Assembly: GCA_051294905.1 (NCBI GenBank)
Contig: CM119371.1
Span: 16,804,001 to 16,868,000 of the forward strand
Source: Botryllus schlosseri
Lineage: Eukaryota
Direction of reading: 5' to 3'
Length of the DNA stretch: 64,000 bases
The position numbers were made by a program, and so were the translations under genes. The notes under the pieces were generated by a model. The model worked only from the letters and a program-made list of their open reading frames with translations. It ran no database searches and was not told where the DNA came from. Positions 22,848 to 42,445 of this stretch are shown one piece after another; within the stretch, counting starts at the first letter, position 1, and each line of letters starts with the position of its first letter.

Positions 22848-24503
22848 GTAATTATAAGGACTAATCCACTCGATTACGGATTCGGAAATGTACCACTACT
22901 TGAATTGACAACCATCCTTACAATAACAAAAAATGTTACGATACCAAACCGGAAGGTTTGAACTGAACTATATGGGAATGGTGAATGATTTTTTACTCCA
23001 AGGCAGCTCAAACCTCGCCAAAAGCGTTGCCATTATTTTGGTGCGCGGACGGCTCAGTCTTGTCGCGTTAACGAACATGCTTCAAAGTAAAATAATTTCT
23101 TGCTTGATTAATGCAGTTTTTGATATCAGACATACGACAATCCTCGGTTTCCGTTAGTGTATTGCTGGACAGACGCCGTATTCTGAGCAGATGTTGCGGC
23201 CTGAGCGGATGCCGTTGTTCCCATGCTCTACTCCCAAAGGAACAAAATCATCGGCATCTGTTAGGTGAATTGTCACTTGCAGCATCGAGAATGGGGGGTG
23301 TACGTCAAGAGCTAAATGTGATTTTTACACACCATGGTATATGGGACATCCGGTTGGGTGACCACGCTAATACAGTAGAAGCCCTATAGCGTAATGGTGG
23401 GCTAACTAGAAAATTTTCGGACAGCTTTCTGCCTGTCTGGTAATCGCGCCATTAAAGGTTTCCGTTCACTTCTTATTTGCCGTCCGACGGTCGGCTAGCA
23501 TGTCCATTGTCCGCGTTCAAGTCGAAATACGGGCAATTGAATGCAGTCCGTGCCCAATATTGCAGGACCACGACTGACCTATTCAATCAATCTCGCTCCC
23601 CATGACATATATATATAGTCGCTTTTTGTCCTGACATATATATATAGTCGCTTTTTGTCCTGTACTATCTTATTTACCCTAATTCAGTGTGCATTGTCTA
23701 GGCCGAGGTGGGAGTCTGATTCCCGAACCACTTCGACATACTCCTGTCCTACAAACCGATCACGTTTTCATGATGCATCGGACTTAGAGAGTTGCTGGTA
23801 AATCAATAATGATGACCAGAGATGGTCAATAACGCACTTTCTCCTCTTTATTGAGGGAATTTGAATTGGTTTTTGCCTGTTCGTGACTACTTTCTCTGGA
23901 CACCACTCTTATTTCTACTTGAGTAAAGGGCCCGACGTTGCTTCTACTCCAGTAGCGACTGTGACTTTACCACGAAAGACCTTGGAGACTTGTAAACTGA
24001 CCTCCAATAAATAACACAATGCCGAAAGAAATTATCATTACAAGAAATTCAGCAGGCATTGCTAAAGAGACACCTTTGATGACGTCACATTCTACGTGCT
24101 GCTCCCCGTGAAACATGCGACAAAGTCCCGACAATAAATCTGTTAAAACAACAGGAATTACGCGTCTGATATGATAACTAATTCCATTGCCCGACGGTAG
24201 TTGGAAACTGTGTGAAACTGTGTGCGGCAAACAATATTGACAAGGTGTGTTGGTTCTACTTTCACGTGACCTGTTGTTGCATGCAAACGGGGAACTCTGG
24301 CATACTATGCAGGGTGGGAGCAATGGGCTTAGTTGGCAGGGGTGCTTCGCGACTCAAATGGTGGAAATTGCTTTAAAGGGAATGTTTGGAGACGGAATTA
24401 TTGGCGTTTGGTGTAAAAAATCAAAACAAAACTCATTACATGGCTCAGCTTTATGTCTAAATTACATTAAAACCGCTAAAAGCCTTTTAGAGGGGCTTTT
24501 TAA

Positions 24504-24653
24504 TGACAGGTATGATTGAAAATTCAAATGAGGCCTGGGACTAATGTGGATAATGTGTTGAGATTTTGTTCCAAGTGACAGGTATGATTGAAAATTCAAA
24601 TGAGGCCTGGGACTAATGTGGATAATGTGTTGAGATTTTGTTCCAAGTGACAG
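24504..24653. repeat. Perfect 72-bp tandem duplication
   Basis: TGACAGGTATGATTGAAAATTC...GTTCCAAG starts at 24504 and again at 24576. Confidence 0.95.
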
Positions 24654-27086: not shown

Positions 27087-28376
27087 CAGGGGTCGCCAAC
27101 TCAAAATGGGTTGCGGGCCACTTTTCAAAATTCCTAGAGGCCGCGGGCCGCATGACATCACTATCGAGATTAAAGTAGGCAACGCAGTTTAACAACCACG
27201 ACTGATAACTCTACGTTAGTACAATGCTGTGCTCTCTAGCATGGGCGACGGGCATAGTCTCCACAAAAGAAATAATATTTTATTGAGCAAACACAAATCC
27301 AACAAAAAATATCAAGATCATCAATTTCATTATATTTTGAACTATGAGCTGTGCACAACAACACTCTGTAGCGCAAATAAAACAGGGGTGGCCAACCTAT
27401 TTCCTATTCACGGCCGCATTTCAATTACTCAAATAGTCTGCGGCCGCATTCCGGTGCATAGTCGTAGTGAACTAACTGGGGCAAAATGGAAAATACCCAC
27501 GTTAGACTGTCCATGTCCATCGCCGGTACACTCCAGACTAATATATTTACGCATATCGATTTACTGTGCGCACCGAAATCGTCATAATAAAACGAGACAC
27601 GCGGATTAGACCTGCAGTCGCGCGAAGCGCGAAAAATTTTTCAGGTTCATGAGTGAATTTCGTCATTAGATATTGGTATAGTTTCATATATCGCGGTAAA
27701 ATATTTATCCTTTTTCGGCCAATGTGATCTGATTCAGCGGTAGAGATGATGCAGGGATTGTCTTCGAAAACGTAGGGAAGTTATTAATGCTGTGCTGCAT
27801 CTTGGTTGGGTCAATTCTTATTATTCCCCTCTGTTGCATGCAGTTATTTCTTGACCTCCCATCAGATTTGTCGAGAGTCAATTCGTAAATTCAAGTTGCA
27901 TATTGACGGCCGCCAACATACCTAATTGAATTAAATGTCGACAGCCGCCTAATTTTCCTTCTACTGTCGCAGATTGGCCACCACCGGATTAAAAAAAATC
28001 GATATTTGGGTTAGCTAGACACGGTAGTCTACTTGCTGGAAAACGATCTCTTCGTAAAGCATGGTCTTTTGGAGAGCCCGAAGTCGTTTTTCACGGGTCT
28101 AGATCTTGGCAGTGGTGGACCATTGCACGTCAAGGCAATATGCCCATTCATACCAGCTAATTGTCCCTCCATGGAATGATATTATCATGCCGAAGCCGTA
28201 TATCAGCAAGTGAGGAATAGTGATATTGGACACAGCAGAATGGCTTACTTTGAAGAACAACAAAAATATCAATTTCAGCATTTCAAAATGCTTCACTAAG
28301 CGTTCTTCGAAATTTTTCCAAATCAGGCCGCGGGCCGCAAAATATGACCTCGCGGGCCGCGTGTTGGTGACCCCTG
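27087..28376. mobile_element. Charlie-like hAT non-autonomous element with a nested second MITE (about 27383-27986)
   Basis: TIRs CAGGGGTCGCCAAC / GTTGGTGACCCCTG; perfect TSD CTCTAAGC. The inner element starts CAGGGGTGGCCAA. Confidence 0.9.
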
Positions 28377-28559
28377 CTCTAAGCTGTCATTGTACGTAAC
28401 GAAGTAGAATTTCACACTGCTTGACAATTGTAGTGGGTTTCTGATAGATTGGCATAATTAGTATTTGGAACAGAGCTAAGATAGTGATTACTTAATCTCA
28501 GTCATTAAAAAATGCCTATATTGGTAAGGATAGAGACTAATTGAAATTTTATTTGCCAT

Positions 28560-29520
28560 CGCTGAAAAGGCAGCTTGCGATATCTGTACCAAGTCGATTG
28601 TGGGCATAAAGCAAATGCATGTTCATCGTTCACGCATGGTCCTACTCAACATTGGAATCTATGGCCATAGTCCTCTGTGGTGAAAAAAACATTGTGAACT
28701 TGGCAAACTAGCTTATTACTTTCTTCTGAGGCTATATTGTAGTCTGGTGTATGTATATGGCTCGTGTTGTAAGTTGCAAAATAAATGTACTTGTAATTAC
28801 TTCTAAAGAAAAAGCACCATCTTGTAGGTGTATTAATCATCGCGATAGCGAAACTATAATTGATTGAATTTAATATTGATTGATTTTTGATATTAATTCT
28901 CGTTCTAGTAATTCATTTTGAAAAATTCACACGGGTCCAGCGGGTCGCTATACCTATGAATGTTGAATCATAGACAATACTAAATGTGTTTACTTTTCAA
29001 TGAACGACACTATTCGTTATGGCAGAATTACAGGTTCACTAATTAAGCAATGATCAGTGAGCCGGTATGATCACCGTAACGGGGTTAGCCAACCTAGCTA
29101 TTTCTCAAGAATGATAAACAGTATTTTGTATCGCGATAAGAATAGCTATTTCTAACTGCTGGTATAAGTTGTACAAAGTTTGAATAGATGTAATACTTCG
29201 ATGCTTCTTACCTTGTGGTATTAACGCATCCACATCATTGGTACATTAATTGAAATTGCCCAGGCCAGTATACCAGACAGATTTATAAGTTTTATGGCAT
29301 CTACCACAGAACGATTCCAAATAGTTAAGCCACTATAGAGACTGTGAGGTTGAAATTTACCTGAATTCTTTTTTGCCAATCAAGTAGACCGTCATAAGGA
29401 TTCCGCCCAATCCAAGCAACGTTTCAGCAACAGTGATCTATGCTGGTAAGTGGTATCACACACTCGGTGAACTTTGGATATTAGAACCAGTTGGCAATCC
29501 CGGCTCTTTGAAAATCTGCA
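28560..29520 (-). pseudogene. Possible decayed, spliced class-A GPCR-like gene
   Basis: Minus-strand segments next to GTAA donor-like sites translate to ITVAETLLGLGGILMTVYLIGKKEF (TM1-like), IWNRSVVDAIKLINLSGILAW (TM2-like) and KLVCQVHNVFF...TMAID (TM3-like). Stops and frameshifts are present. More exon-like pieces lie between about 26.4 and 31.15 kb. Confidence 0.3.
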
Positions 29521-31967
29521 ACGCCACGAAGTTATATACCATTAAGCATTGATTAATTACTGAGGAAGGTTAAATTTACGCTGAAACTGCGTCACGGTGA
29601 TTGATTGCTTCATACCAATACCGGGGTTTATATATTATCAATGGTATCACCAACCATGACTTACCCGGCGTGAGGTTTCGAAAATCAAGTCCGGCCACTG
29701 TTTTTCAGCTGCATTGAAACTCACTCCTAATTGGTAAATATAGAGCCATTTTCTTTGCCTGAATGCCAGTAGATGCAAGCTCACGCTGAATAGACGTCCA
29801 TACTGTGGTATCTATCTGGATTAAACCGTAACAAGACCTTTATAGGCTTAAAAATAAACTGTATTGACAAACTCCAACTCATCAGCAGTTTATAACCCTT
29901 CTGAACAGCATGCTGCAGCCTGTTGATAACTGTCAGTTTTCTGCACTATTATAAGGTAATTTGCATATTAGGTCTTAAATTCTAAACAATAAGGTAGCCT
30001 CATCTCATTTTTAGTAAATTCAGTGTTACCGGTGATTTTACCTATTTGTAGAGGGCATTTTTACCTACGTTTGTTCAAAGCTCTGTGTTTTTGAGGGAGG
30101 AGAGAGTATTTTATTTTTAACTCAGTCTGGACTAGGCAGCAGATAAGACAGCAATAATGGCGATACAGAGTACACTGCATGATATTTGTTATGATAAGAT
30201 GCGATCTCACAATATTCTCATGCAGATTACTGAGCCTTTGATAGTGGAAAAACACAATATTATGAGCATATGATGTTCCACCGATGGTCATAAATCACAC
30301 GTCTTTGCATTTAAGCCAAAAAATATGCTTAACAATATTCAGAACTGACGAAAGATTGCAGATAACTGGATAATTTTGCTAATTGCTGAATATTCTTGTT
30401 ACGTTATGGTTGGTAGTCAGTTCATTTCAATTGTATAGATCTTAAATCACTCATGGGCCCAAACTCCAAAAACTAAAGCAATGAGATCTGGATCTTCAAG
30501 TATTACGAGTTTTGAAATCACCAGAGTACTTTAATTGTTGAACCCTAGTGGCCTTCTGAGTTGTAGGTATATAAGCATTAGGGCCAATTCTAACTTGGCT
30601 GAGTATAGTTCAATAGTGTGAGGCTACTTTTGAAGACATGATATACACAAATAATAGATAGTCACCGTTTTGTTGAAAACCTTTCATTAAGATGATATTG
30701 AGTGTGTATGAGAGAGAGAGTAAGTACTGAAAGTAGAAGTAGAACTAAACGGGTGTGAAGACCAACTCCAAACAACGACCACCTATGTTGTAAGAGAACC
30801 ACCGTGTGTTCATTATGAATAGGTATGGTAATCATCTTGAAATAATACGCCATTTATTTATTTATTCATTTATTTATAAAAACTTGTTCGATATGATGAA
30901 GTATTGTTGAAGCATTTCTTTTTATTGTATAAATATATTTCTTGAGCTTGGGCATAGAGCCGATATTACGGTGTTCGCTGCTTGGGGGTAGTGCCTGGTG
31001 TCGGCTAGCGGAACCGTCTATGGCGCGACCCAATAGCTCACAACAATGAGATAAGTAACCCTTTTTCATTAAAACCGTAGAACATCTTAAGAATCACCTA
31101 TGAAAATGAATTCTTACCTTGTTGGACTGCATCCAACCGCAAAGTGATGTGAAATTGTAATGATGTATATAAGGTATATTTTTGTGTGAGTCGTACGTTT
31201 GTCCCTACCCTATGGGGTTGGTAATGTAGTAATGAGGTATATATGAAGTAGATTGTGAGGAAATCTCACTTTTTGACACCCATGGTTACGCGAGTAGACG
31301 CTGCATTTCAGCCACGATAGGGAGGAAGGAGGGACAAATATATTGTCGCAAACTATGTATATAAAGTGTTACAGTATGTATATATATAAGCTTAAGCACC
31401 CACGAATAAAATTGATAAAAGAATTTTAAAATTAAATAAAAACTTGTGGCGGATAAAACATACAATAAGAAAATTTGCCATGTGAAAACATAGTATTCAA
31501 AAATCAAAGAAAAAATTCATAAAATATCTAAAACGAATATCTAATGATAAAATGCCCTTGTGGGTTACCAAAATGTTATCTAATATAACTTAGATAGGAT
31601 ATGAAGTTGGAGTCGGACTTGGGATTGGATTTGGGCTCGGAATCGAATTCAGACCCCGACGTGAACCATGTGATCTGAAAACTTTTCGTGTATAAATTTA
31701 TGATTAATTTACACCAATTATGAAATATTAGTAGTGATAACATGTGTCCACGATTACGCTGCAAGGAATCCGAGATCGAGCACTCAGTCTGGGTACCACA
31801 AAAATATATGTCTCTCGATCAAGGCTGAAATCGCTGAGATCACTGAGATTCCTGATGATGACACATACGTTATCAGGAATATCAGAGTATCTATGTGACA
31901 TTGGCCGATGAGTCTAATTTAAGGCTCCGCCATTGGAAACAATGGTATGACTTCGCCACGAGTGACA

Positions 31968-32301
31968 GCACAGGACTGGAAATGATAGATTATCCAGAGA
32001 AGCCTGGAAGACTAAATTAATAGGCACAGGACTGGAAATGCTAGATTATCCAGAGAAGCCTGGAAGACTAAATTAATAGGCACAGGACTGGAATGCTAGA
32101 TTAACAAGAGAAGCCTGGAAAACTAAATTAATAGGCACAGGACTGGAATGCTAGATTAACAAGATAAGCCTGGAAAACTAAATTAATAGGCACAGGACTG
32201 GAAATGCTAGATTATCCAGAGAAGCCTGGAAGACTAAGTTAATAGGCACAGGACTGAAAATGCTAGATTTTTCAGAGAAGCATAGAAAACTAAATTGATA
32301 G
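31968..32301. repeat. Six tandem copies of a 55-56-bp unit (GCACAGGACTGGAAATGCTAGATTATCCAGAGAAGCCTGGAAGACTAAATTAATAG)
   Basis: Copies start at 31968, 32024, 32080, 32135, 32190 and 32246. Confidence 0.95.
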
Positions 32302-33004
32302 CTATGACTGATAAAGTCTTAGGGTACACTCAATGATTTTGCATCCCTATCTGGTTTAATTAAACTATGTTTAATGAAGAAATAATATATAACCTGAATA
32401 AATAGATATATATGATAGCCTATATGTGTAGTAATAGGGATGTATATATAATCGGAATAAAATAGTATGGTAATTAGGTTAGAAAAGACCCTAGAACACA
32501 TAGGAAAGTGTACTACAAACAATATGAACTTGAAAATGGCAAATAAACTGGCCCCATCCACACATTTGTTTTCCGAAACAGATGTGTCGATGATCAAGAA
32601 CCACGTTAGTCATATGTCCGACCTGTCGACACATGCGTTTTACGAAGCGGGTGTGTCGACCGATTGTTATATCGATATCTGTACAAGATTTATGACAATG
32701 TTATTTTAACGAGTTAATTTTTGTGCTATAGACGTAGGCATAAATTGCGTCATGAAGCACAAGTGCCATTCTCATTTTCGAAATTATAAAACAGATCAAA
32801 TACGATATCAAGATATTCTACACACCCGTGTAGTTAAGCTATCGAATGAATCGATGACGGGACATATTAATTCATTCCGCACGAGTTTTTCGAAAGCTTG
32901 TTCCGTCAAGCACTAATGTACCGAGAGGACAACTAGTTATACAAGAAGATGGAATCACCACTCCATGATATCGCGATTCTCCCGGACAAAACGGCAGCTA
33001 TATT

Positions 33005-33690
33005 CCACCTTGCAATCGCCGAGCTGAATTTTATAGATTGGTGACATTTTCGTCCATATCAAAAGAAGCTTCAGTATTGCCAACTGATATGACGGCCGCG
33101 AGATTTTATTGGTCTGGATACAAAGATAGAGTGAAGTGTTCCAGCTGCGGTGTAAACATGGACTACGCCTGAAAAGCGAGCAAAAAAACCCTCACCGGCC
33201 GCCGAAATAGGAACGCAAATACGCGTCGCTCGAACCAGATTGTCAGAGGAAGATGCCAAGAAGATGCAGTTGGACAGCATAAGATTTAGCAGAAGGCACA
33301 CAGAAAAGAGCCACCAGCAGACGATCAAATATTCATTTTACTGTGAACGATGTCGTACAAGACCCTTTGATACTACTCGATATAGTGCCAGTCGATTGAA
33401 ATACACAAACTGCGCAACAGTCAAAGAGTAGACTGGGCAACTCTGTTTATGCTAGAAACAGAATGGGGACGCCATCAATAATAGAAATTGCATGTGTTGG
33501 AGAAATTGCTGAGAATCTGATGGTTATACAAGAAACCATACTTTGCCAACAATGCAAGAATAATAGGAGTGAAATTACCCTGATCCCCTGTGGACATCTG
33601 GGTCTGTGTCAAGAATGTTCGTCCGATGCTGAGCGCTGCATATTCTGCAATGGGAAAATATCGCAAAAGATCAAAGTGTATGGAGCTTGA
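33005..33690 (+). pseudogene. Intronless inhibitor-of-apoptosis (IAP)-like gene: BIR domain plus C-terminal RING, disrupted
   Basis: 33026-33172 translates EFYRLVTFSSISKEASVLPTDMTAARFYWSGYKDRVKCSSCGVNMDYA*, matching the BIR pattern E..RL.TF/GFY/D.VKC..C; the TGA sits where Trp is expected. 33541-33690 translates LCQQCKNNRSEITLIPCGHLGLCQECSSDAERCIFCNGKISQKIKVYGA, an IAP-type C3HC4 RING. The BIR part is absent from the supplied ORF track. Confidence 0.85.
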
Positions 33691-33923
33691 CGGTGCAGGC
33701 AAGACAAACGTATTTCTGTCTAGTGGACTGGAAACAAAGTTGTGTAGTGAAGCTAGTTCGCTTTATTATGTTCAAATACTATAATTACTATGTTCTTGAT
33801 AATTACTATCAGGTTGCTTTAAATGGCGCTAACATTTTCATGACCTGAACATAGTTAAGACTTAATGGACATTTATTATATGAATAGTAAGTTGTCGCTG
33901 CATAATTGCATTTGTAGTTGACT

Positions 33924-33933
33924 GAGGGGGAGG
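33924..33933 (+). other. Candidate polypurine tract (GAGGGGGAGG)
   Basis: 10-nt purine run downstream of the IAP stop and about 1.1 kb upstream of the PBS. Confidence 0.35.
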
Positions 33934-34577
33934 TCATATTACTACGTATTGAATCATTGCGTGATATACTGGTATGTGTATTGTTGTTCACACACATATT
34001 TGGGTCGCCGTTTAATCGAGTGGTACATGATTAATCGATATTTGTTTGTTTTGTGTTAACCGTATTGATGTAAACTATTAATAATAGTGCATGACGATAG
34101 CAGGGTTTGACTAAGTGAGATTTGTGACTAACTACCGTATATGTAAATAGCTGGGCCCTTTAGGGATAACTAGGGTGTATGTGTAAACGACATTAAATTA
34201 GGAAATTACTTGTCCTTGACAAGTTGTTTAATGTCACAAGTAACTAAAATAAATACCCCTTCCTATAATAACGTCACAGATTCTCCACAAAGTCAAACCT
34301 GTTACAATGAGTGTTTATATTATTTTCTGTTGTGCCGTCTCGTACAGTAAGGCGTCATAACCGACCACGCCTTATGTTAGTGTCGGGACCCTTCACCCTA
34401 ACGGGATAGAAGTTTAGGATTCGTGGTATATCAGATCTATGATCTGTGAGACACGGTGCATACGAATGAATAAAAAGCTTAAAACACCAGTACCATCGAA
34501 CCCAGAGATATAGTAGATTGTGATCAAAATACTATTGTAATTGAGTGTTGTGTAATGACACAATATTTCATGAATGA

Positions 34578-34691
34578 ATTTTTCGGCAGGATAGGCCGTC
34601 ACATGAACTATATGTGTAAACCAACCTTGGAGCTGCTTTTCGGCAGGACAGGCCGTCGCATGAATTATATGCGTAAACAGACCTTGGAGTA
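34578..34691. repeat. Two copies of a ~57-bp unit in the putative LTR
   Basis: TTTTCGGCAGGA(T/C)AGGCCGTC(A/G)CATGAA.TATATG.GTAAAC..ACCTTGGAG occurs twice. Confidence 0.85.
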
Positions 34692-35072
34692 TTGAAAATG
34701 TTTATTAATCGTGCATGTTGATGAATAGGTTTAGATAAAACTTGTAATATAATTGAAGCATGTTTACCAATTTTATAAGGTTTTACTCATAGGAACCTCA
34801 TTCCTCTTTGCATGGTTATAATTGGAGTATTTGGTTGTATTAAGGTTTAGCTTACTAGTTATACCAGTGTAGTTTTAAGTTCTGGACCTGAAGGTCATTG
34901 ACTGATTGGATCCAGCTGCTGCTACCCTTACCACTGCTTCGATCACCATTTGTGGATGCTACAAGGTCACAACATCAACACAGATAAGGAAAACCAACAC
35001 TGTGAAGTAAAATCGAACCAAGTGTAGACTCTCGCAGTAACAAGCGTTATTGGAGCTGCACTATAAACGTAT

Positions 35073-35093
35073 TGGAGGCACCAAGCTGGGATT
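35073..35093 (+). promoter_or_regulatory. Primer-binding site complementary to the tRNA-Thr(AGU) 3' end
   Basis: TGGAGGCACC-AA-GCTGGGATT versus TGGAGGCACCGCTGGGATT expected from a metazoan tRNA-Thr (tRNA sequence recalled from memory); 2-nt insertion; lies 440 bp upstream of the gag ATG. Confidence 0.75.
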
Positions 35094-35124
35094 ATTACTT
35101 CCGGTGTAGCACGTTGACCTATAA

Positions 35125-35493
35125 ATGTGTTCAAAGACGACCATCGTTAAAACTGCATTGGTCGTGGCCCTGATTGCGTCTGTAATTTCATTGTTAGTTA
35201 CGTTGTCACCAGTATATCTACATTTGGTACCGGGGTTTTCTTCAACTACAGTTCCGATTGGAAACGGAAGACCTAACAACGGAGTTACAACATCGTCCCC
35301 AACTCTTATTGGCTCGCAAAACATATCTGCATGACGCCAATTTATCATTACTAAAGACTCGCTTTCTAAACTTTTGGAGTTCGAGACTAACGACCACAAC
35401 TCATCACTCGGAACAACACCGCGGCCTACCTTGGACGACCCGACCATCTCCAGCGTAAAGCTGGCCCTCGAAAACTCTACTACGGGTCTATAA
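35125..35493 (+). CDS. Leader ORF with an N-terminal signal/anchor helix and Ser/Thr-rich tail, in frame with gag; internal TGA at 35332
   Basis: Hydrophobic helix ALVVALIASVISLLVTL; the frame stays open after the TGA until TAA at 35491-35493; NIS, NSS and NST sequons. Confidence 0.55.
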
Positions 35494-35514
35494 ATCAAAT
35501 CTATTACTATTGCC

Positions 35515-38457
35515 ATGCGAAGAATCTTGAAACTATTTAAAAAGAAGAAATCAACGGAGGCATCGGCGGAGCTAAAGCAGGGAATCCGACTGCTTAAATA
35601 TACCCAAAAGCGTCACGAAGATGTGCGAGACCAAGAGAGGCAATACGCTAAAGATGTGGCCGACCAGACAAGAGTCCTACAGGAGGTCAAAACGACCCTG
35701 CCTGAGGCAGTGAAGGAGCTGGAAAAAGCAAGAAAAGACGTCCGGCGGGCTCAAGCTGACCTGAAGGCCGTTTGTGACGCCACTTCAAAAATTACTGGAA
35801 AGGTTTCCCCTGACGTATTAAACGAGATCTTGCAGACTGAATTCGAGCTGGGTAAAGCCTATACGCAGGTGGTAGGAGAGAAACCGCCTCCTCCTCCCGC
35901 CCTGGCTGTAGTACCCTCAGCGCCTCCTCCGGCCTATGATCCACCAGCTATCCGTATGGTCAAGGAGACTCAACCTATGCCCACCTTCACCGTGAAAAAG
36001 GGGTTGCATTGTCATACAGTAACGGCGGTCTACCCTACGCACCCAGACGCGAAGGCTGATGCCCCATCTCGACCGACACCGGTTGCCCGTTCACTGATGG
36101 CTCCAACCTTTAGAAAAAAAGGGAATATGCACCCGGCGATGAAGACCAAAGATGCTGCTAACACGCCCATGGCATATTGGACACCTACGGGAGTGGCGAC
36201 AGGAGGACCGATGAGACTGGAACGCGAAACAGACTCCGAATTGGACAGTAAACATCTGCCCTCATTCCGGAAACTGGTGTCGAGACCTCGAGATGCGAAG
36301 GGTCAGCGGCGGGACATTGACAAGTTGGGTGATGTTGGGACACGAAGTAGTCGGGCAAGAAAGTCGCCGAGCGACGATAAGCACGTCATTTTCCGTGGAG
36401 AAGGGGAGGAGTATGATGAAGGAGACTCGGAGGGTCAACCAGAAGATTCTGATTCTGAAAGTTCGACGACATCCCGACTGCAGAGGCTTGTACAGCAAAT
36501 GGAATCCACACAGGACACCCTCCTGGAAGCTACTCGAAATGCTTTCCTTGAAGATAGTGGCGCTTCCCGAGAAATTCTCCGTGGTCCCGAGTATTACGAT
36601 GCGCGCTATCTTCCAAATGGCCGGGGGAATCCTGGAATGCCGCGTTTCGCATCTACTCCAGATGACAGTGATGATGGCCGCCCAATTCAGCCGCTCTCGC
36701 GACAGATGGAGGTAATAGTAAACCCAACGCTAACTACACCTGTTAGATTTCAGTCCGAAAAGGAAATGATACAGTTGATAATGGATCCGGGGGACATGCC
36801 TCTTCTCAAATGGATGGAGAACACAATGAGGCGAATTCACCACGGTGAAGGTAATACTGATGCTGATGTAATATTGATGAATGCAATGCAAAAGAAATTG
36901 AAGAATGCGGGGCGTTACAAACAAGCTGATCATCTTGGAAACTTCTTCAACACAAACTCAGGAAACGCCAGCTGGGAATCCGTTATGAGGTCGCTATCAC
37001 TTTCCAACCCGCAAGGAATTGTAAACAAGGAAAGAATTCTCAACGATTTCCGAAGAAATTATCATTGGGAAGATGAACCCCTTCCTCTACTTAACAGCGC
37101 CCTGAAACAACTAGAGATAGACATGGACGATCTAGTTTTGGATAATCCGGACGGGCTGCGACTCTTCCGCAATTTGAGACAGCAGCTGCCGGAAGCGCTC
37201 AGGTTGATTATTCGAGGGTGGGAAGAACACACCTGGCGGAAAGTCGCAGAAGAACTACAACTGTTCTGGAATTCGGAATTCCAAGATGAACAGGAATCGA
37301 GTCCGACGTCTCAGAGAACCCGAAGAACGCAGAAGAACGAGTCGGCCTTGCCGCCTGTACATATCTATAATGTACAGCCAGCTGGGCCTGTGGTACATAG
37401 CTATCCGACTCACCCTAACGGAGATGGACAACGGGAAATACCTCTACAGCCTACTTCCTCGTCATCACATCTTCCGCCGGAATTCGACGCAACGCCACCT
37501 CGACCTCCCAGAATCATCCCTTTACAGCCTATTAAGAATATAGGACAGGTTACACAACTACGCCGAAATCCTGTTCGCAACGCAAGATTAAACCGGCCTC
37601 CTACTAACGTATCGAGTGGTATCGGGCCAGGCAGACGAGCGCAAACTACTAGGAGAATGCTGGAACGAACACAGAATGTACAAGGCGCCTCTGCTGGACC
37701 CGATACCCAGCCTCTACATATTTCAGGGTCAGCACAATCCGGTCAACAACCAGGAACTTCAAGCCAAAGAAGCCCACGGACAGAAGGAACACAAGATTCT
37801 GGAGTGGGACCAGATAATACGCAAATCACTCCGTCAAACAGTCAGGAGGCTCGCCACATCGCGGAAAGCCAAGGTGAGAGGTACAATTTCCTTAGAAATG
37901 ATAATATATTTGCCCCATTAGGTTTGTATTTGAATCCTTCCCAGGGCCAGGCCCTTTCGGTATGTTATTATTGTAAGGCTCCCGGACACCAATCCCGGAA
38001 TTGCATTGCCAAGTTTATCCTTTGGCTAAACAATGAGGTACTCTCTAGAGTTAGCGAATTGGGGTGGGCAATCCATAAACGGGTCCGACCGGTACCGCAG
38101 CGTATTAAGGAATCCGCTGAACGCAACTGGCGTCCGTTCCTTACTACCCATGGATTATTGACGATTTCAGACCTTGATCGGTATCTCATATCCCATGGTT
38201 CTCCCCCGTTGGCAGAAAGAACGAATCTATGTGAGGCCTATTATGATAGTAGACCTAAAAACAGAGATAGAACCCACTGGCACGATAGGGGCCAATGGGG
38301 TCCCAGGGGGCCACCCGCGAATCCAATTCCTAATAACGGCCAAGTAAACTGGATTGCGCCTTCATATAGACAAGAGCCGCACCAATATGCCACCTCTTAC
38401 TGGACAGATGAGGAATTAGAACGCTTACGCGTTTCAAAAAACGGTTGGGGGCGCTGA
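35515..38457 (+). CDS. gag: Gag-like polyprotein, 980 aa
   Basis: Intact ORF with a GCCATG start, basic N-terminus, coiled-coil-like region, PSAPPPAY (35914-35937), a helical capsid-like middle, and the CX2CX4HX4C knuckle CYYCKAPGHQSRNC (37963-38004). Confidence 0.88.
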   Translation: MRRILKLFKKKKSTEASAELKQGIRLLKYTQKRHEDVRDQERQYAKDVADQTRVLQEVKTTLPEAVKELEKARKDVRRAQADLKAVCDATSKITGKVSPDVLNEILQTEFELGKAYTQVVGEKPPPPPALAVVPSAPPPAYDPPAIRMVKETQPMPTFTVKKGLHCHTVTAVYPTHPDAKADAPSRPTPVARSLMAPTFRKKGNMHPAMKTKDAANTPMAYWTPTGVATGGPMRLERETDSELDSKHLPSFRKLVSRPRDAKGQRRDIDKLGDVGTRSSRARKSPSDDKHVIFRGEGEEYDEGDSEGQPEDSDSESSTTSRLQRLVQQMESTQDTLLEATRNAFLEDSGASREILRGPEYYDARYLPNGRGNPGMPRFASTPDDSDDGRPIQPLSRQMEVIVNPTLTTPVRFQSEKEMIQLIMDPGDMPLLKWMENTMRRIHHGEGNTDADVILMNAMQKKLKNAGRYKQADHLGNFFNTNSGNASWESVMRSLSLSNPQGIVNKERILNDFRRNYHWEDEPLPLLNSALKQLEIDMDDLVLDNPDGLRLFRNLRQQLPEALRLIIRGWEEHTWRKVAEELQLFWNSEFQDEQESSPTSQRTRRTQKNESALPPVHIYNVQPAGPVVHSYPTHPNGDGQREIPLQPTSSSSHLPPEFDATPPRPPRIIPLQPIKNIGQVTQLRRNPVRNARLNRPPTNVSSGIGPGRRAQTTRRMLERTQNVQGASAGPDTQPLHISGSAQSGQQPGTSSQRSPRTEGTQDSGVGPDNTQITPSNSQEARHIAESQGERYNFLRNDNIFAPLGLYLNPSQGQALSVCYYCKAPGHQSRNCIAKFILWLNNEVLSRVSELGWAIHKRVRPVPQRIKESAERNWRPFLTTHGLLTISDLDRYLISHGSPPLAERTNLCEAYYDSRPKNRDRTHWHDRGQWGPRGPPANPIPNNGQVNWIAPSYRQEPHQYATSYWTDEELERLRVSKNGWGR

Positions 38458-38479
38458 TTGATCCGGTAAATCAGCTCCC
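38436..38479 (+). promoter_or_regulatory. -1 programmed ribosomal frameshift signal (gag-pro)
   Basis: In-frame A_AAA_AAC heptamer at 38436-38442, a 5-nt spacer, then the stem GGGG(C)GCTGATT / AATCAGCTCCC; the protease ORF is in the -1 frame. Confidence 0.85.
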
Positions 38480-38954
38480 TGACACAATATTACCCAAACA
38501 TGTTAAAACTGTACATAATGCTTCGTTACCTTTATTTACATTCCTTGATTCACCGGACAAATCGCTACAACCGGATTTCGCGGAATTATTCGGTGGACAA
38601 CTTTTATACCTAGTGGATACAAACACAGACACTAAATTTCTTGCCGATACTGGCAGTATTCCCAATTTGATTATGAAAAGCGTAGTAAAAAATAAATATC
38701 CAAAAAGCTGGGCTGAACGACAGCCACTTGATATGAAATTGCGCGGAATAGGAGGGTCGTCCCGAGTCGACTCCCTAGTAATAGTACCTCTTGACGGACT
38801 GCAAGTTCCATTTGCAACTGGCAAAGGAGTTCCTCTTAATATAGTGGGGCTAAAATGGATTGACAAAGTACAACAATTACCGAGTATAGATTCTGAATTT
38901 AAAACTCCGTCTACTGATAATGAAGGATTGTCATTGGCAACACTACATGTATGA
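38445..38954 (+). CDS. pro: Retropepsin-type aspartic protease, expressed by frameshift
   Basis: FLADTGS active site, LRGIGG flap and NIVGLKWI helix motif. Confidence 0.88.
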   Translation: MGALIDPVNQLPDTILPKHVKTVHNASLPLFTFLDSPDKSLQPDFAELFGGQLLYLVDTNTDTKFLADTGSIPNLIMKSVVKNKYPKSWAERQPLDMKLRGIGGSSRVDSLVIVPLDGLQVPFATGKGVPLNIVGLKWIDKVQQLPSIDSEFKTPSTDNEGLSLATLHV

Positions 38955-40999
38955 CTTTACGCGATAAAAAGGACGGAACCGGAATTGGAAACAGTCCTTG
39001 CAAAACTGTGACCAAGGATGGGTTGGTGAAAGCTGCAGAACAGCAGAGCGTCGAGACGGCAAGGGCCGCTGGCGCTGGCGTCGAAGTGGCAGGGGCTGCT
39101 GACGCAAACGTTGGGTCGGTAAACACCGCTGACGTTACAATAGAAAAGAGAGACTCTTTGGGTGCCGAGCAAGGAAGGCCTGCTGACACCTGCCAAAATC
39201 GCGCCGAGCGAGGAAGTCCCGCTGACGCAAATGGAGTTCAAACTAATGAAGGAGGCTCCAATGATGTAGGCAATATGAGCGTCGAGTTGGCAAGGGCCGC
39301 TGACGCACACGTTGGGTCGGTTAACACCGCTGGCGTTACAAGAAATCAAAGAGACTCTTTAGGTGCCGAGCAAGGAAGTCCTGCTGACACCAGTCTAATT
39401 CGTGCCGAGCGAGGAAGTCCCGCTGACGCGAATGGGGGTCAAACTAATCAAGCAGACCCCGAGGATGTAGGCAAAGCTGCTTGTCCAGATGACGGTAAGG
39501 CATCAGTGCGGAATGATCCCACGACAGCTGCCGTCATGCCTACTTCACTCAACAATAGTTCCAACGCAGCTACTACATATTTTCCGGATATGAGTCCGGA
39601 GGAGACTAAAGAGGAGTCTGGAGATTTTAGGATGCAAGTCTCTCCAGAACAAGGACCCCCGTCGAATCAAAGTTCCGGCGGCGTGACGTTAGGCGTGGGC
39701 ACGCGCCGAGATCAGAGGTTAACACGAATAGGTAGGGAAGTCCCGCTGACGGAAAAAAACCTCGTCCTCTCCCCACCAACTAAAAAATCCCGATTATCGC
39801 ATAAGCTAAACAGAAGGATGAACGGTTTGGTAACCACGTACGTTCTACAAGAGGGAACCAGTGCTGAGGTAAATACTGAACTTGAGGTCCTGCGCCCACA
39901 ATCAATTGAGCTAGCAAAATTGCCATATACGCCCCTTGATTTGACTACGCCAGAAAATACCATTATCGCTGACAACGTATGGTCAGAGGACTATAAACCT
40001 TTTGCGACTGAGCTGGAAGATCTGCGATGCCATCTTAGCGTGCCCCATTCTATGAAGTACAAGTACGACAGCGAACTAAAAGACCCATCAACTAAGCCAT
40101 TTGTCTCTGGCCCATCTAATGTGAAAGGTGAAAGCCATACCAAGTATTTACATGAAGCTGTAACCATGTGGTCAGCAAATATAGAGTCATGCGCGGTAAA
40201 ACCAATAACGGAGAAGTACCAGCAGCACATAAAAGAACATGGCCAGGCTGATAGAAAAAATACAATAGCTATGGAAGCCTACATTTCTCTCAGCACAAAG
40301 ACGGCCGAAGATAACTTACTTCTCTTACGAGTTGGGTTTAAAATAAAGGAAGTGATTTATCTCAGCACGATGCAAGTATTCGCGTCAGATGGATTGTCCC
40401 GATCCTATTGGATAGGAATGGCAGTAGGAGATGACGATCCCCGTGCTGCTACTCCGAAAAGGGAAGAAGTAACCCATATTTTGAGTGCATATCAACAAGA
40501 AGGGGTGCAACGAACATTAATGTACCAATTCGGGCATGCAGAGTGCCAAGACTCGACAAATGGATACCACCGATTGGAATACATACATGCGATTGTACAA
40601 GGCAAACTGAAATCAATTGTTGAAATGACCGAAATAAAAAACGTCATGATAAGTTACGATAGGGCTGTAGTCACGAACTACGGTTTGGCCGCGACACACG
40701 AACATACGAAAGGGTCGATTCCCCGCTACCGGGAGTACGGAGGTGACGGTATGTTATGTCACATGACGACTGAATTGAACACAAAAGTTCTCATGAACGA
40801 GGGGATCAAAATGATAAACAGAAAGTTTGTTCATCCTAGTAAGTCAAAGACGACAAAGATGCTAGGCCTGAAGATTGTTATCAGCATGAATGCGGCGGAC
40901 CTGATTACTGAAGGTGTGAAATTGCTACAATCTCCAAATCCCGATGTTGTGCTGTGTACAGGGCCAATACCGGTGAAACCAGTGCAATTGGGAAATTGA
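38951..40999 (+). CDS. 682-aa ORF: repetitive disordered N-terminus, unassigned middle, C-terminal Tpt1/KptA-like domain (about aa 519-678)
   Basis: Motif order LMYQFGH / NGYHRL / YDR / LAATHEHT / LCHMT / EGIKMINRKFVHPS / ISMNAADLITEGVKLLQSPNPDVVLCTGPIP parallels Tpt1 LS..LRH / DGWV / K.R / IRA.QGHS / .YHGT / EGL..M.R..VHLS / ID......G......S.N.V.L....P. Confidence 0.75.
   Translation: MTLRDKKDGTGIGNSPCKTVTKDGLVKAAEQQSVETARAAGAGVEVAGAADANVGSVNTADVTIEKRDSLGAEQGRPADTCQNRAERGSPADANGVQTNEGGSNDVGNMSVELARAADAHVGSVNTAGVTRNQRDSLGAEQGSPADTSLIRAERGSPADANGGQTNQADPEDVGKAACPDDGKASVRNDPTTAAVMPTSLNNSSNAATTYFPDMSPEETKEESGDFRMQVSPEQGPPSNQSSGGVTLGVGTRRDQRLTRIGREVPLTEKNLVLSPPTKKSRLSHKLNRRMNGLVTTYVLQEGTSAEVNTELEVLRPQSIELAKLPYTPLDLTTPENTIIADNVWSEDYKPFATELEDLRCHLSVPHSMKYKYDSELKDPSTKPFVSGPSNVKGESHTKYLHEAVTMWSANIESCAVKPITEKYQQHIKEHGQADRKNTIAMEAYISLSTKTAEDNLLLLRVGFKIKEVIYLSTMQVFASDGLSRSYWIGMAVGDDDPRAATPKREEVTHILSAYQQEGVQRTLMYQFGHAECQDSTNGYHRLEYIHAIVQGKLKSIVEMTEIKNVMISYDRAVVTNYGLAATHEHTKGSIPRYREYGGDGMLCHMTTELNTKVLMNEGIKMINRKFVHPSKSKTTKMLGLKIVISMNAADLITEGVKLLQSPNPDVVLCTGPIPVKPVQLGN
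39080..39472 (+). repeat. In-frame 201-bp (67-aa) tandem duplication inside ORF3
   Basis: VEVAGAADANVGSVNTAD... starts at 39080 and VELARAADAHVGSVNTAG... at 39281. Confidence 0.92.
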
Positions 41000-42445
41000 A
41001 AATACTGCAGGGGGTCCGTCATTTGTGCACAGAATGATTAGTTTGTACTTCCCAGGAATTTGGCTGCACAATGAATTCAAACGGACAAAACCTAAACCCC
41101 GTAATTAGATATATGCTGAATCAGCAGGAGTGCATTTAATACAAGAGAATAATTGATGAGAAAAAAAGGATTCAAGTTAGAGTGTTTCACATGAAAGAAA
41201 TCGATTATTTCATGGGTAAACATGAAATGGGACGTGTTGCACATGTTCCGGGAAACCAGGTGAATAGTATATGTGTTCCAATAATTTAATCATTTCGAAC
41301 TCAATCACAGCTTAGCCGTATAATTCCCAAGTGAGATCAATTCTAAAATCCTTTAAAATATGTTTGCTATTTTAAAGATAATTTCAAGTGAAATTTATAT
41401 GTTTGATTCATGATATAGTCGTTTGTTAGAGAGACTCATCAAGTTTATTTATATGCATGAAACAGTGTAGATCTCGAAAAAGCTACTTTTTGAATGGATT
41501 CTTAACGATTTCATCTACAGCTGGCAGATTGCATCGTGTCTTATATCACCTAATCAACCTTCTGATTGGAATGATGAATAGTATGATGTTTGCGAAAATT
41601 TACACAACTTTAAAATTGCAATTCCAGCCGTTTTTCGGATTTGTTTCTTATAGGCGAAAAAAAGTGCAGAAACCTGCGAAAGTGTTTTTAGTAATCATGC
41701 TCTAAGACACCACAAAATAATTATTTGTATACCGTAAATGCCATATCATTTATGAATTCCAAATATATCATAAAACAGCATCAAATAATCAAATAATCTG
41801 TTTTTCATTGATTGATAACATGATATCGACTTTTAGATTAATACGCACAACGCACTATGTACAAATACTCGAAATCGATGGTCTGTAAGTACCCAATTAC
41901 AATTCCAAACGCACATCCTATTTGCATCATATCCTTACCACTTCTAGGCAGAAATACTGGAAATGGCGGTGGCGGTGGAGGTGGAGGTGGATGTGGTAGA
42001 ATACGTGGAGATGGATTTTCTTCACTGAAGCCTGTTACATACGGATATGGATATTTACAGCATCCAAAATGGTAAACCTACGGTCATTATATAACCACCA
42101 TTTGTTATCTCACTCGCAATGTAACCGATGCCTGGTTACACAATATTAGCGACACCTTTATCAGTTTCATGACCTTACTCTGATGTCGTAGACTTTGGCT
42201 TAACATGAACAGCCCTTTTACGACGAGAGAAGCTACTCCAGTATATAAAACATACCACTAATATATATGTATACATCTGGCGTACGGAAATGTCAATGTC
42301 TATTATCCCGGCACATAAAAAGTGGTCCATAAAAACAGCAAGCTGTAGTTTAACAACGATTCGGCTTAAGTGATATTCTCTTTGGTGTACTGTTGGACTC
42401 CTTTTAGCAGGATCGGATGAGGCGGAGGAGATGGGATATCGACAT

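Follow-up and report, generated by a model that had tools for sequence, protein, structure and literature searches.

A Tpt1/KptA-like domain at the C-terminus of Pol in giant virus-like mobile elements of Botryllus schlosseri, with a decayed copy in a non-autonomous derivative

Results

A Tpt1/KptA-like domain in the window and in its uninterrupted relatives

A segment near the 3' end of a mobile element in the Botryllus schlosseri genome is a true Tpt1/KptA domain in degenerate form, and in uninterrupted relatives of this element the same domain forms the C-terminal part of a 1,205-aa Pol consisting of protease, reverse transcriptase (RT), RNase H and Tpt1. There it occupies the position where retroviruses and LTR retrotransposons have their integrase. 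We are highly confident that the domain is real and that it is part of Pol. Tpt1/KptA enzymes use NAD+ to remove 2'-phosphates from RNA by means of an Arg-His-Arg-Arg tetrad. The window referred to below is the whole stretch of 64,000 nucleotides that was analysed, and positions are counted from its first letter.

40505..40999, + strand: Tpt1/KptA-like domain, decayed (Pfam, PDB, alignment, dN/dS)
40532..40534, + strand: GGG codon, encoding Gly where the first catalytic Arg is expected (alignment)

A first-pass annotation made from the letters of the window had reported Tpt1 motifs in this segment, and they are indeed present in Tpt1 order. Its assignment of the segment to a Tpt1/KptA (ART-fold) domain within a retroelement-type gag-pol unit is borne out by Pfam and PDB comparisons, by a profile of genomic copies and by Foldseek. 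The sole Pfam match in the translation of positions 40448-40996 is PF01885 (PTS_2-RNA; E = 1e-3, model positions 47-176 of 177), and its score of 19.6 bits lies below the gathering score of 26 bits. The three best PDB sequence matches of the window domain are all Tpt1/KptA chains (8tfi, E = 3.6e-3; 7kw8, E = 9e-3; and 8tfz). In the alignment, H529, R571 and R624 (ORF3 numbering, counted from its first Met) fall on the three invariant residues His, Arg and Arg of the Tpt1 family, and the earlier reading of Gly at the first Arg is likewise correct. Of the 16 distinct element-type sequences compared, 14 have Arg at this first position; the window copy and its sister copy L002 both have Gly there, and in these two the tetrad is incomplete. 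Compared with six sister copies, the window domain has dN/dS ratios of 0.86-1.39, which correspond to neutral drift. Given this drift and the Gly at the first Arg, the domain in this non-autonomous derivative is better explained as a decaying relic than as the "catalytically dead decoy" that had been suggested.

The resemblance is stronger in the uninterrupted relatives. In the Pols of four divergent lineages PF01885 scores 45.9, 40.8, 38.9 and 31.1 bits (cut-off 26), with a match that spans nearly the whole model in three lineages and model positions 73-175 of 177 in the lineage with 31.1 bits. A profile of 11 genomic copies yielded eight matches in the PDB, all of them to Tpt1/KptA chains (best E = 8.4e-14). 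An AlphaFold model of the uninterrupted copy L009:7751-8368 (pLDDT 74.7) has the predicted two-lobe fold of Tpt1, and Foldseek ranks 1-22 for this model were all Tpt1/KptA structures, with E down to 1.9e-11 and best TM-scores of 0.73-0.80 on the target; the fold evidence refers to this one uninterrupted copy. KptA-DNA complexes rank best among the structural matches. Since the genomic-copy profile matches only Tpt1/KptA in the PDB and the 22 top Foldseek matches are of the same family, the resemblance is not due to chance.

In the numbering of L009:7751-8368, R53, H54, R96 and R149 align with invariant residues of nine canonical Tpt1 proteins of ~180 aa, and 10 of 10 element-type sequences, among them relatives from other assemblies, keep the tetrad unchanged. 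In the Runella enzyme the residue aligned with R149 is Arg119, and Arg16, His17, Arg64 and Arg119 of that enzyme are described as essential (PMC6097658). The motifs GH(S/T), YH.T and R..(V/I)H are also invariant across lineages with 24-40% identity of the domain.

Pol architecture, selection and lineage

Comparison of four pairs of the 1,205-aa family gave dN/dS ratios of 0.14-0.24 for Tpt1, 0.19-0.26 for the protease, 0.02-0.12 for RT, 0.04-0.05 for RNase H and 0.35-0.49 for the linker. These ratios indicate that the Tpt1 domain of this family is under purifying selection, as opposed to the drift found in the window copy.

The uninterrupted elements contain gag and a PR-RT-RNaseH Pol (RVT_1, RT_RNaseH/RT_RNaseH_2), and Pfam finds no match to the rve integrase (PF00665) in this Pol. 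All seven of the seven Tpt1-bearing Pols fall into one clade (support 100/100, branch 1.28), apart from the 17 nearest other Pols. In a search of 5.8 billion proteins, the closest two RT-RNaseH relatives both carry PF01885 and lack an integrase domain; more distant Pols in the same search carry integrase, and the RT-RNaseH identity to the nearest integrase-bearing Pols is 22-27%. By this phylogenetic and domain evidence the RT-RNaseH-Tpt1 fusion defines a lineage.

The domain had been placed downstream of the protease in the first-pass annotation. The description holds for the window copy and fails for the intact Pol, in which RT and RNase H intervene; the two appear adjacent in the window because RT and RNase H were lost from that copy by internal deletions.

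The giant host element

The full element is ~39.8 kb long and coded on a single strand, with the gag-pol unit at its 3' end. The ends of the element family start with GG and are imperfectly inverted (about 8 of 10 and 13 of 20 positions match in the 39.8-kb family, 9 of 13 in the window copy), and perfect 8-bp target-site duplications flank seven of seven copies; the window copy likewise has a GG start and an 8-bp duplication of its own. The cargo comprises two IS1595/Merlin-type DDE proteins, two envelope-like glycoproteins, an IAP (three BIR domains and a RING in the full ORF), a ubiquitin E2 (UQ_con in Pfam), an LRR protein and gag. The DDE_Tnp_IS1595 matches reach 39-63 bits, and the DDE triad is kept in all three DDE ORFs of the uninterrupted elements. 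In two lineages that differ in gene order, DDE and envelope-like genes are linked with the gag-pol-Tpt1 unit, and one of the two has the retroviral order gag-pol-DDE-env.

Contrary to its initial description, the host is not an LTR element. LTRs are absent: the 3'-terminal 264 bp occur once per copy, and no long direct repeats flank the gag-pol unit in the window or in the composite. Long terminal inverted repeats (at least 24 bp) were also ruled out, as the 3' end was not recovered anywhere in inverted orientation. Pfam gave no match to a tyrosine recombinase, a trait of DIRS/Ngaro elements, in the 21 upstream ORFs of the full element, gag and Pol, although several of these ORFs match nothing and could conceal a recombinase of very divergent sequence. 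The host belongs to an undescribed family of giant virus-like mobile elements without a retroviral integrase. A bolder reading, which we offer as possible rather than probable, is that of a novel class of mobile element or endogenous virus: enveloped, retrovirus-like, ~40 kb long, with an IS1595/Merlin-type DDE protein in place of integrase and with Tpt1 essential for replication, which would proceed through RNA without LTRs, perhaps via a circular or terminally healed intermediate.

The copy in the window

The copy in the window has the following features.

16334..41279, + strand: the window copy of the giant element in its full extent (24,946 bp); non-autonomous, with unrelated repeats nested in it
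16326..16333, no strand: 5' target-site duplication, 8 bp, AATAATTT; the same octamer adjoins both element ends
16334..16346, + strand: 5' terminus, GGGTCAAGTATAC, read directly; matches the inverted 3' terminus imperfectly, at 9 of 13 positions
31742..32014, + strand: accessory ORF remnant (tblastn E = 1e-8, with 29% identity over 112 aa, for a 171-aa ORF that the full element carries)
32900..33687, + strand: degenerate IAP (BIR/RING) remnant (E = 1e-23 and 5e-20 in tblastn with the full element's IAP-like ORF of 580 aa)
34821..34844, + strand: 24-nt sequence like the host spliced leader, upstream of gag, conserved
35494..38457, + strand: gag-like ORF of 987 aa (from stop to stop), with its CCHC zinc knuckle spanning residues 823-837
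38412..38954, + strand: ORF2, 180 aa, protease-like N-terminal part of Pol (weak Pfam RVP match, E = 0.12)
38436..38442, + strand: A AAA AAC heptamer in the gag/pol overlap, candidate -1 frameshift site, read directly
38924..40999, + strand: ORF3, 691 aa, with the Pol linker, an RT remnant and the Tpt1-like domain
39078..39474, + strand: two tandem repeats of ~200 nt within the Pol linker (repeat family D2, 86% identity)
40148..40342, + strand: RT remnant, the sole surviving piece (tblastn, 59% over 68 aa; aligns to Pol residues 678-745)
41267..41279, + strand: 3' terminus, ...GTATATGTGTTCC; similarity to eight sister loci ends at 41279-41295
41280..41287, no strand: 3' target-site duplication, 8 bp, AATAATTT, identical to the 5' octamer

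Similarity to sister copies sets in at ~16326, continues across 22001-32000 and stops at 41279-41295, the 3' limit against eight sister loci. The 5' terminus resembles GGTACTTGTG..., the 5' terminus of the 39.8-kb family, and the 3' terminus resembles the family terminus ...CACTAGTTCC; the termini of the window subfamily are slightly different, and the pattern GGWACTWGTG has no match in the window. With the ORFs of an uninterrupted copy as queries, tblastn found no DDE gene, envelope-like gene or full RT in the window copy. RT is gone except for the remnant listed above and RNase H is gone entirely, while gag (Pfam zf-CCHC, E = 5e-4; 52% identical across 1,021 aa to its counterpart in the uninterrupted family) and the protease part (70% identity of ORF2 to Pol residues 1-186 of that family) are kept.

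The same A AAA AAC heptamer, a candidate slippery site, is present at L009:4800-4806. The reading frame of pol is shifted by -1 with respect to that of gag, and Gag and Pol are probably joined by a -1 frameshift. A second programmed frameshift, between ORF2 and ORF3, was ruled out: the frame change is particular to the window copy, and in the sister copies the region is one unbroken frame of 853-907 aa. The spliced-leader-like 24-mer is identical in five of five aligned copies from four divergent lineages, and among all loci collected one sister copy, L015, departs from it at a single position. In RNA reads the 24-mer directly follows the template-switch oligo and is then followed by many different sequences.

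Copies, distribution and expression

The first-pass annotation had allowed for a one-off capture of the domain, which is refuted by at least 128 related stretches in the B. schlosseri genome and by relatives in other assemblies. By our own count, 44 of the 128 matches lie within uninterrupted frames of at least 1,150 aa. The window subfamily has ~10 copies, 92-94% identical to each other, that have lost RT and RNase H. The multiplication of such RT- and RNase H-deleted subfamilies indicates that copying requires neither an RT encoded in cis nor a good Tpt1 domain. ORFs of 162 aa with a Tpt1 domain, considered as a separate stand-alone family, proved to be RT/RNase H-deleted copies of the same element.

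Relatives with the RT-RNaseH-Tpt1 arrangement were found in other public assemblies (P0005, P0011, P0017 and P0152). Word-indexed protein searches with residues 330-691 of the window ORF3 or with the Tpt1 part of the 1,205-aa Pol returned no relative; the protein relatives surfaced only in an exhaustive profile search and through the RT-RNaseH region. No relative was found among the IMG/VR viral contigs. The sole usefully named protein among 20 checked is P0006 (198 aa; XP_039263204.1 of Styela clava, "probable RNA 2'-phosphotransferase"). One sequence in the P0152 cluster, 53 aa long, is named "hypothetical protein".

In four bulk RNA-seq runs the depth over gag-pol-Tpt1 is at most 2.3, which corresponds to nil or very low expression in those samples.

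In line with the earlier remark that the domain is not known as standard cargo of animal LTR elements, a search of openly accessible literature found no paper describing a fusion of Tpt1 with a retroelement or RT, or an element combining Merlin/IS1595 features with gag and RT. A 2019 review of giant transposons mentions none of tunicate, ascidian, Merlin, IS1595 and phosphotransferase.

Discussion

Relation to known systems

The element domain shares its two-lobe fold, motif order and tetrad with the stand-alone Tpt1/KptA/TRPT1 proteins (PF01885; 8tfi, 9ld3-9ldi, 7kw8, 1wfx), to whose canonical members it is 20-30% identical. Canonical Tpt1 is a free protein of ~180 aa, whereas the element domain is the C-terminus of a retroelement Pol of 1,067-1,205 aa and longer. 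A CCHC gag, an aspartic-protease-like region, RT with RNase H, the heptamer in the gag/pol overlap and, in one lineage, envelope-like genes after pol are shared with Ty3/gypsy-type LTR retrotransposons and retroviruses. The element differs from these in having no LTRs and no rve domain, in the separate clade of its RT-RNaseH, in its size of ~40 kb and in its 8-bp target duplications, those of LTR retroelements and retroviruses being 4-6 bp.

The element's DDE_Tnp_IS1595 domain, its 5'-GG termini and its 8-bp duplications are in turn those of Merlin/IS1595 transposons. Terminal GG and duplications of 8-9 bp are given as hallmarks of Merlin, a superfamily reported in ascidians (PMC8101967). Unlike these transposons, which have terminal inverted repeats of 24-462 bp, the element has short, imperfect ends, ~37 kb of cargo including a complete gag-pol, and two DDE paralogues per element. 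Teratorn-type fusions of piggyBac with a herpesvirus (PMC10175614) are likewise giant and likewise combine a DDE transposase with viral genes; here the transposase belongs to another superfamily and the viral part is retrovirus-like (gag, RT and class-I-like envelope proteins). Homologues of KptA/Tpt1, with a putative function, are also reported in gammabaculoviruses, large insect DNA viruses (PMC3230848), where they are separate genes, in contrast to the fusion with RT-RNaseH seen here.

Possible roles of the domain

These results lead us to propose that the domain of the uninterrupted elements may be an active NAD+-dependent phosphotransferase, that, as a part of Gag-Pol, it would be packaged together with RT, and that its substrate could be the nucleic acids of the element itself. 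An end-healing or capping role, as suggested in the first-pass annotation, is plausible for these uninterrupted members. We prefer a scheme in which a blocking phosphate, either an internal or terminal 2'-phosphate or a terminal 3'-phosphate, would be stripped from the RNA template or primer, allowing RT to prime on this RNA and to copy through it. The resulting DNA would then be inserted by the DDE protein and not by a retroviral integrase, a step suggested by the 8-bp duplications, the GG ends, the conserved DDE triad and the hallmarks of Merlin. Phosphate removal is possible in that Tpt1 enzymes are described as removing internal 2'-phosphates (PMC6097658) and some of them terminal 2'- or 3'-phosphates (PMC6573784).

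Some considerations count against phosphate removal as the specific mechanism. We found no source of 2'-phosphorylated RNA: Rfam returned nothing in the window at the gathering threshold, and nothing in seven loci or in the five loci spanning a full element at E up to 0.1, which leaves a ribozyme source of cyclic-phosphate ends without support, and RNA ligase, kinase and cyclic phosphodiesterase domains are absent among the ORFs scanned. Furthermore, tRNA ligation by RtcB in animals is not known to leave a 2'-phosphate. We advance the specific mechanism only tentatively. Taken together, the identity of the domain and its proposed role in phosphate removal constitute the explanation toward which we lean slightly, the low RNA depth, the multiplication of RT-less subfamilies and the lack of LTRs in a terminus-defined element that would have to replicate through RNA counting against it.

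The same conserved catalytic residues also serve the first step of the reaction, and it is conceivable, if somewhat doubtful, that the domain ADP-ribosylates 5'-monophosphate ends of the element RNA or cDNA, such as those left by RNase H, and that the ends would thereby be shielded from exonucleases, ligation and sensing until DDE-mediated insertion. RNase H leaves 5'-phosphate ends, and the domain directly follows RNase H in Pol. This notion is also consistent with the KptA-DNA complexes among the best structural matches and with the 5'-phospho-ADP-ribose caps that Tpt1 enzymes are described as building on RNA and DNA (PMC6182162). The sequence fits phosphate removal equally, however, and all four residues needed for the two-step removal are kept.

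Could Tpt1 be irrelevant to mobility, gag-pol-Tpt1 having been captured by a giant Merlin-type transposon that moves purely as DNA? In its ends, 8-bp duplications and DDE genes the element is of the DNA-transposon type, RT-less derivatives have multiplied and LTRs are absent. We nevertheless regard capture as improbable in view of the strong purifying selection on RT, RNase H and Tpt1 among copies, the linkage of gag-pol-Tpt1 with DDE genes and envelope-like genes under two different gene orders, and the 44 of 128 matches in long uninterrupted frames.

A little less likely still is a role outside the chemistry of reverse transcription, in which the domain would serve counter-defence or host manipulation by repairing nuclease-damaged RNAs of host or element or by acting on NAD+-linked host signalling. 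The element does carry other genes of the host-manipulation type (the IAP with its three BIR domains and RING, and the UQ_con E2), and the KptA/Tpt1 homologues reported in gammabaculoviruses (PMC3230848) offer a viral precedent. Unlike this other cargo, however, Tpt1 forms an in-frame fusion with RT-RNaseH in all lineages observed, distant ones from other assemblies included, which points to action beside RT inside the particle rather than to a free cytoplasmic role. Finally, that the domain is non-catalytic throughout the family, a nucleic-acid-binding or structural module filling the space of integrase, is very improbable: the window copy and its subfamily persist despite damaged motifs, but their neutral evolution reflects decay and not a new constraint, and elsewhere the tetrad and motifs are invariant at 24-40% identity with dN/dS of 0.14-0.24.

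Implications

The standard set of retroelement Pol domains consists of protease, RT, RNase H and integrase, with an occasional dUTPase or chromodomain, and to our knowledge an NAD+-dependent nucleic-acid phosphotransferase is outside it. A conserved and selected RT-RNaseH-Tpt1 fusion implies that some reverse-transcribing elements have a step that needs phosphate removal or ADP-ribosyl capping, and it would offer a concrete biological setting for Tpt1, whose role in animals is obscure. In uniting Merlin-type ends, duplications and DDE genes with a retrovirus-like gag-pol-env at ~40 kb, the element bears on the exchange of integration modules between viruses and transposons and on how large RT-associated elements can become. 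Stand-alone gene models that such genomes list as RNA 2'-phosphotransferase, P0006 with its 198 aa being one example, may be pieces of elements of this kind. If the reading of the host as a new class is true, the fusion would be the first case of NAD+-dependent RNA/DNA end chemistry in reverse-transcribing elements.

Identity of the Tpt1 domain

The first-pass annotation had proposed that the last of three overlapping forward-strand frames, found by reading the open frames of window 35494–40999, ends in a Tpt1/KptA-like RNA 2'-phosphotransferase domain. The frames, in window 35494–40999 (+), are:

gag-like frame, 987 aa, with a CCHC knuckle
protease-like frame, 180 aa
ORF3, 691 aa

PTS_2-RNA (PF01885) is the sole Pfam match in the C-terminal 183 aa of ORF3 (window 40448–40996), with an E-value of 1e-3 and 19.6 bits against a cut-off of 26 bits, covering model positions 47–176 of 177, and the best three PDB sequence matches to the same 183 aa are Tpt1/KptA enzymes. 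This sub-threshold match is by itself suggestive of a Tpt1 identity, which is settled by relatives in the same genome. A six-frame search of the 495-Mb assembly with the 183 aa gave 128 matches, 44 of them, by our count, in uninterrupted frames of 1,150–1,324 aa. One uninterrupted copy (L009) encodes a gag of 954 aa and a Pol of 1,205 aa, the latter with the following Pfam domains and, in the same scan, no integrase:

residues 599–773, RVT_1
residues 843–985, RT_RNaseH/RT_RNaseH_2
residues 1046–1195, PTS_2-RNA

The PTS_2-RNA match reaches 41.1 bits within the whole Pol and 45.9 bits when the domain is scored by itself (model positions 8–177 of 177), and 40.8, 38.9 and 31.1 bits in three other, divergent lineages. 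All eight PDB matches of a profile built from 11 copies are Tpt1/KptA chains (best E 8.4e-14), and Tpt1/KptA occupies Foldseek ranks 1–22 for an AlphaFold model of the uninterrupted-copy domain (pLDDT 74.7, residues 1–36 disordered).

When the element domains are aligned with nine canonical Tpt1 proteins of ~180 aa, H54, G63, R96, H110, H129, R149 and H153 (numbering of L009:7751-8368) are invariant, and R53 is found in all sequences except the window copy. There, the GGG codon reported earlier in place of the first catalytic Arg is confirmed at window 40532–40534, and the ORF3 residue numbers of that annotation are right when counted from the first Met; the GH(S/T), YH.T and HLS motifs are also altered in this copy. 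R53, H54, R96 and R149 are invariant in ten element-type sequences, relatives from other assemblies included. Arg16, His17, Arg64 and Arg119 are described as essential in the Runella enzyme (PMC6097658); element R149 pairs with Arg119 in the alignment, and R96 lies at most two residues from Arg64 in the HMMER alignment. What the elements carry is a genuine Tpt1 domain, catalytic residues included, fused to RT–RNase H.

Selection on the domain

Nei–Gojobori dN/dS was computed for four copy pairs of the 1,205-aa family (domain dS 0.17–0.33), a fifth pair being too alike to inform.

dN/dS by region in the 1,205-aa family
Tpt1, 0.14–0.24
protease, 0.19–0.26
RT, 0.02–0.12
RNase H, 0.04–0.05
linker, 0.35–0.49

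The Tpt1 domain is under purifying selection in this family. Within the window subfamily, its dN/dS is 0.86–1.39 between the window copy and six sister copies, and 0.44–1.10 among those six. Together with the motif changes in the window copy, the pattern of dN/dS therefore means that constraint acts on the domain in autonomous elements, and that the window copy's version of it is in decay. A further locus, L002 (dN/dS 0.20–0.27 in the Tpt1 domain), was left out of the window-subfamily ranges because it looks recombinant, with dS of ~0.45–0.66. The N-terminal half of L002:1438-2040 (on C15) is of the window type, with Gly at the first Arg, and the C-terminal half is like another lineage, with intact motifs; the locus looks like a recombinant between subfamilies.

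Distribution of the fusion

A profile search run exhaustively over 1.84 billion representatives found 569 matches at E ≤1e-3, 19 of them at E ≤1e-10. The long matches that were scanned (database proteins P0005, P0011, P0017 and the cluster-mate P0151) combine RT, RNase H and PTS_2-RNA, and the remaining matches inspected are short fragments or canonical enzymes of ~180 aa. The only close matches to an RT–RNase H query are P0005 (51% identity) and P0152 (43%; its cluster has 31 members, on contigs of up to 1.47 Mb), both with PF01885 and without integrase. The next matches are Pols at 22–27% identity, mostly of Ty3/gypsy type with integrase, one being caulimovirus-like and one retrovirus-like by appearance. 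In a maximum-likelihood tree of 24 RT–RNase H regions (midpoint-rooted for drawing only, with a long-branch warning for P0167), all seven Pols with Tpt1 fall in one clade (support 100/100; branch length 1.28). The distribution of the Tpt1 fusion is lineage-defining.

In P0017 and P0151, which are ENA proteins from another assembly, the Tpt1-bearing Pol runs on into Exo_endo_phos, a LINE-type endonuclease; an adjacent insertion may have been merged into the gene model, or this may be another combination of domains. The sole named relative, a 198-aa Styela clava protein (P0006) annotated as 'probable RNA 2'-phosphotransferase', begins within the conserved segment that comes ahead of the domain in the element Pol, and is therefore probably an element fragment and not the host's own Tpt1 gene. 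This relative and the leader-like signal described below both point to a probable tunicate host. Our literature searches, made mostly outside subscription journals, returned nothing that describes a retroelement Pol with a Tpt1 domain or a gag-pol-env element with Merlin-type ends.

Possible function and expression

An A AAA AAC heptamer in the −1 overlap of gag and pol suggests that the Tpt1 domain would be produced as part of Gag-Pol; if so, it would be packaged with RT, and its substrate would be nucleic acid of the element itself. One chemistry available to Tpt1 is the removal of internal 2'-phosphates. Two others are described, namely removal of terminal 2'/3'-phosphates (PMC6573784) and ADP-ribosyl capping of 5'-phosphates (PMC6182162, PMC12678800). 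We tentatively favour, at less than even odds, phosphate removal, which would render the template or primer usable by RT; capping of 5'-phosphates is nearly as likely. Any RNA-based model, the favoured one included, has to face that the searches turned up neither a ribozyme nor a ligase or kinase, that RT-less derivatives have multiplied, and that no expression was seen in four bulk RNA-seq runs.

Those runs carry the same species label and were used as raw reads (1.1–1.9 billion letters each). Depth over gag-pol-Tpt1 of L009 was at most 2.3 in every bin, giving no evidence of transcription there. A single spike at L009:1438-1467 stood at 53–144 per strand in three runs and ~5 in the fourth. 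Its reads consist of the template-switch oligo, then a short sequence, then many different continuations, so the sequence behaves as a host trans-spliced leader would. The leader-like 24-mer is found at:

window 34821–34844
L009:1439-1462
L013:2491, L014:2563 and L015:3272 (other loci)

It lies ~500–650 bp upstream of gag and is identical in five of five aligned copies representing four divergent lineages, with one mismatch in the sister copy L015. GT mostly follows, and 40–55 nt on there is a conserved (A)ATT(C/T)TGGACC...GGTCATTG block, Sm-site-like, with a 4-bp hairpin and no covariation. The 24-mer could be an element-borne SL-RNA-like gene or promoter, or the trace of a trans-spliced RNA copied into DNA.

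The window copy

Set against the uninterrupted Pol, ORF3 still has the linker (45% identity), 68 aa of RT (Pol residues 678–745) and the Tpt1 domain (51% identity); the remainder of RT and the whole RNase H are gone. Sister copies at 92–94% nucleotide identity have the same deletions and hold the protease and the rest within a single frame of 853–907 aa, so the ORF2/ORF3 split is private to the window copy. Sister-copy homology spans window ~16326 to 41279–41295, with these features:

window 16334, 5' terminus, 5'-GGGTCAAGTATAC
window 41279, end of the 3' terminus, ...GTATATGTGTTCC-3'
window 32900–33687, IAP remnant (tblastn)

Given these homology limits and termini, and AATAATTT adjoining both ends, the window copy is an insertion of 24,946 bp whose 8-bp target-site duplication is intact. 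DDE, envelope-like and full RT genes were undetected in it by tblastn. A 56-bp tandem repeat array lies inside the element (window 31925–32315), and three high-copy short repeats with dozens of genome-wide matches are nested in or near it (window 12471–13487, 22337–22847 and 27087–28376).

Loci L034, L035 and L036 (on C7, C5 and C13) and the window subfamily represent several independent deletion derivatives that have lost RT and RNase H. What survives in them is parts of gag, the 3' end and a Tpt1 frame that stays open for 162 aa. The pattern has two readings: a cis requirement for the 3' region, or repeated deletion at identical sites.

The complete element and its gene order

In the 1,205-aa family, six copies share a 3' end 268 bp past the Pol stop codon, and homology among copies extends tens of kilobases upstream, breaking at a single point (L037:2030-2046 in a full-length copy) in all 17 other copies that reach there. 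One full copy measures 39,763 bp. All seven copies examined have the termini 5'-GGTACTTGTG...CACTAGTTCC-3', flanked by perfect 8-bp duplications whose sequence differs from copy to copy; the ends are imperfectly inverted (13/20). The 3'-terminal 264 bp are present once per copy, and there is therefore no LTR. This untranslated segment contains a conserved palindrome of ~26–30 nt (L017:1635-1664); several copies show it matching itself on the other strand. All scanned ORFs of at least 90 aa are on one strand.

Order of ORFs in the full element, 5' to 3'
1, DDE_Tnp_IS1595 protein, 327 aa, 39 bits
2, ORFs of 859 aa and 1,165 aa, Pfam-negative
3, few-ORF stretch with nested repeats
4, LRR protein
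5, second DDE_Tnp_IS1595 protein, 63 bits
6, IAP with three BIR domains and a RING
7, UQ_con ubiquitin E2
8, several small ORFs without assignment
9, gag, then Pol

Asp, Asp and Glu are invariant among the DDE paralogues, which also share a Cys cluster at the N-terminus. The 8-bp duplications and DDE_Tnp_IS1595 genes resemble Merlin/IS1595 transposons, whose hallmarks are a terminal GG and 8–9-bp duplications and which are reported in ascidians (PMC8101967). The element lacks LTRs and a retroviral integrase, yet has Merlin-type insertion signatures.

The two large ORFs near the 5' end are paralogous, Pfam-negative and envelope-like, each with a signal-like N-terminus and a C-terminal membrane anchor:

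L037:3351-5927 and L037:6003-9497, envelope-like pair of the full-length copy
L012:4348-6792 and L012:362-4282, homologues in a divergent lineage

The 859-aa ORF shows these terminal features together with 11 N-x-S/T sites and an R-x-K/R-R (furin-like) site at residue 480, directly followed by a hydrophobic stretch (485–511). By language-model features it comes closest to class I viral fusion proteins (score 0.90, 188/256 features), a likeness that, by the tool's own caveats, may serve as a lead only.

In L012 (C1:8881000-8890999, minus strand), a DDE_Tnp_IS1595 ORF that shares 56% identity with the 39.8-kb family's 5' DDE directly follows Pol-Tpt1, and the envelope-like homologues come after it (29% and 23% identity to the 39.8-kb family). 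The layout matches that of retroviruses, gag-pol-'integrase'-env, with an IS1595-type DDE standing where integrase would be. In the 39.8-kb family these three genes, the DDE and the envelope-like pair, sit at the opposite (5') end, an arrangement that looks like a circular permutation of the L012 order. The permuted gene orders hint at a circular intermediate.
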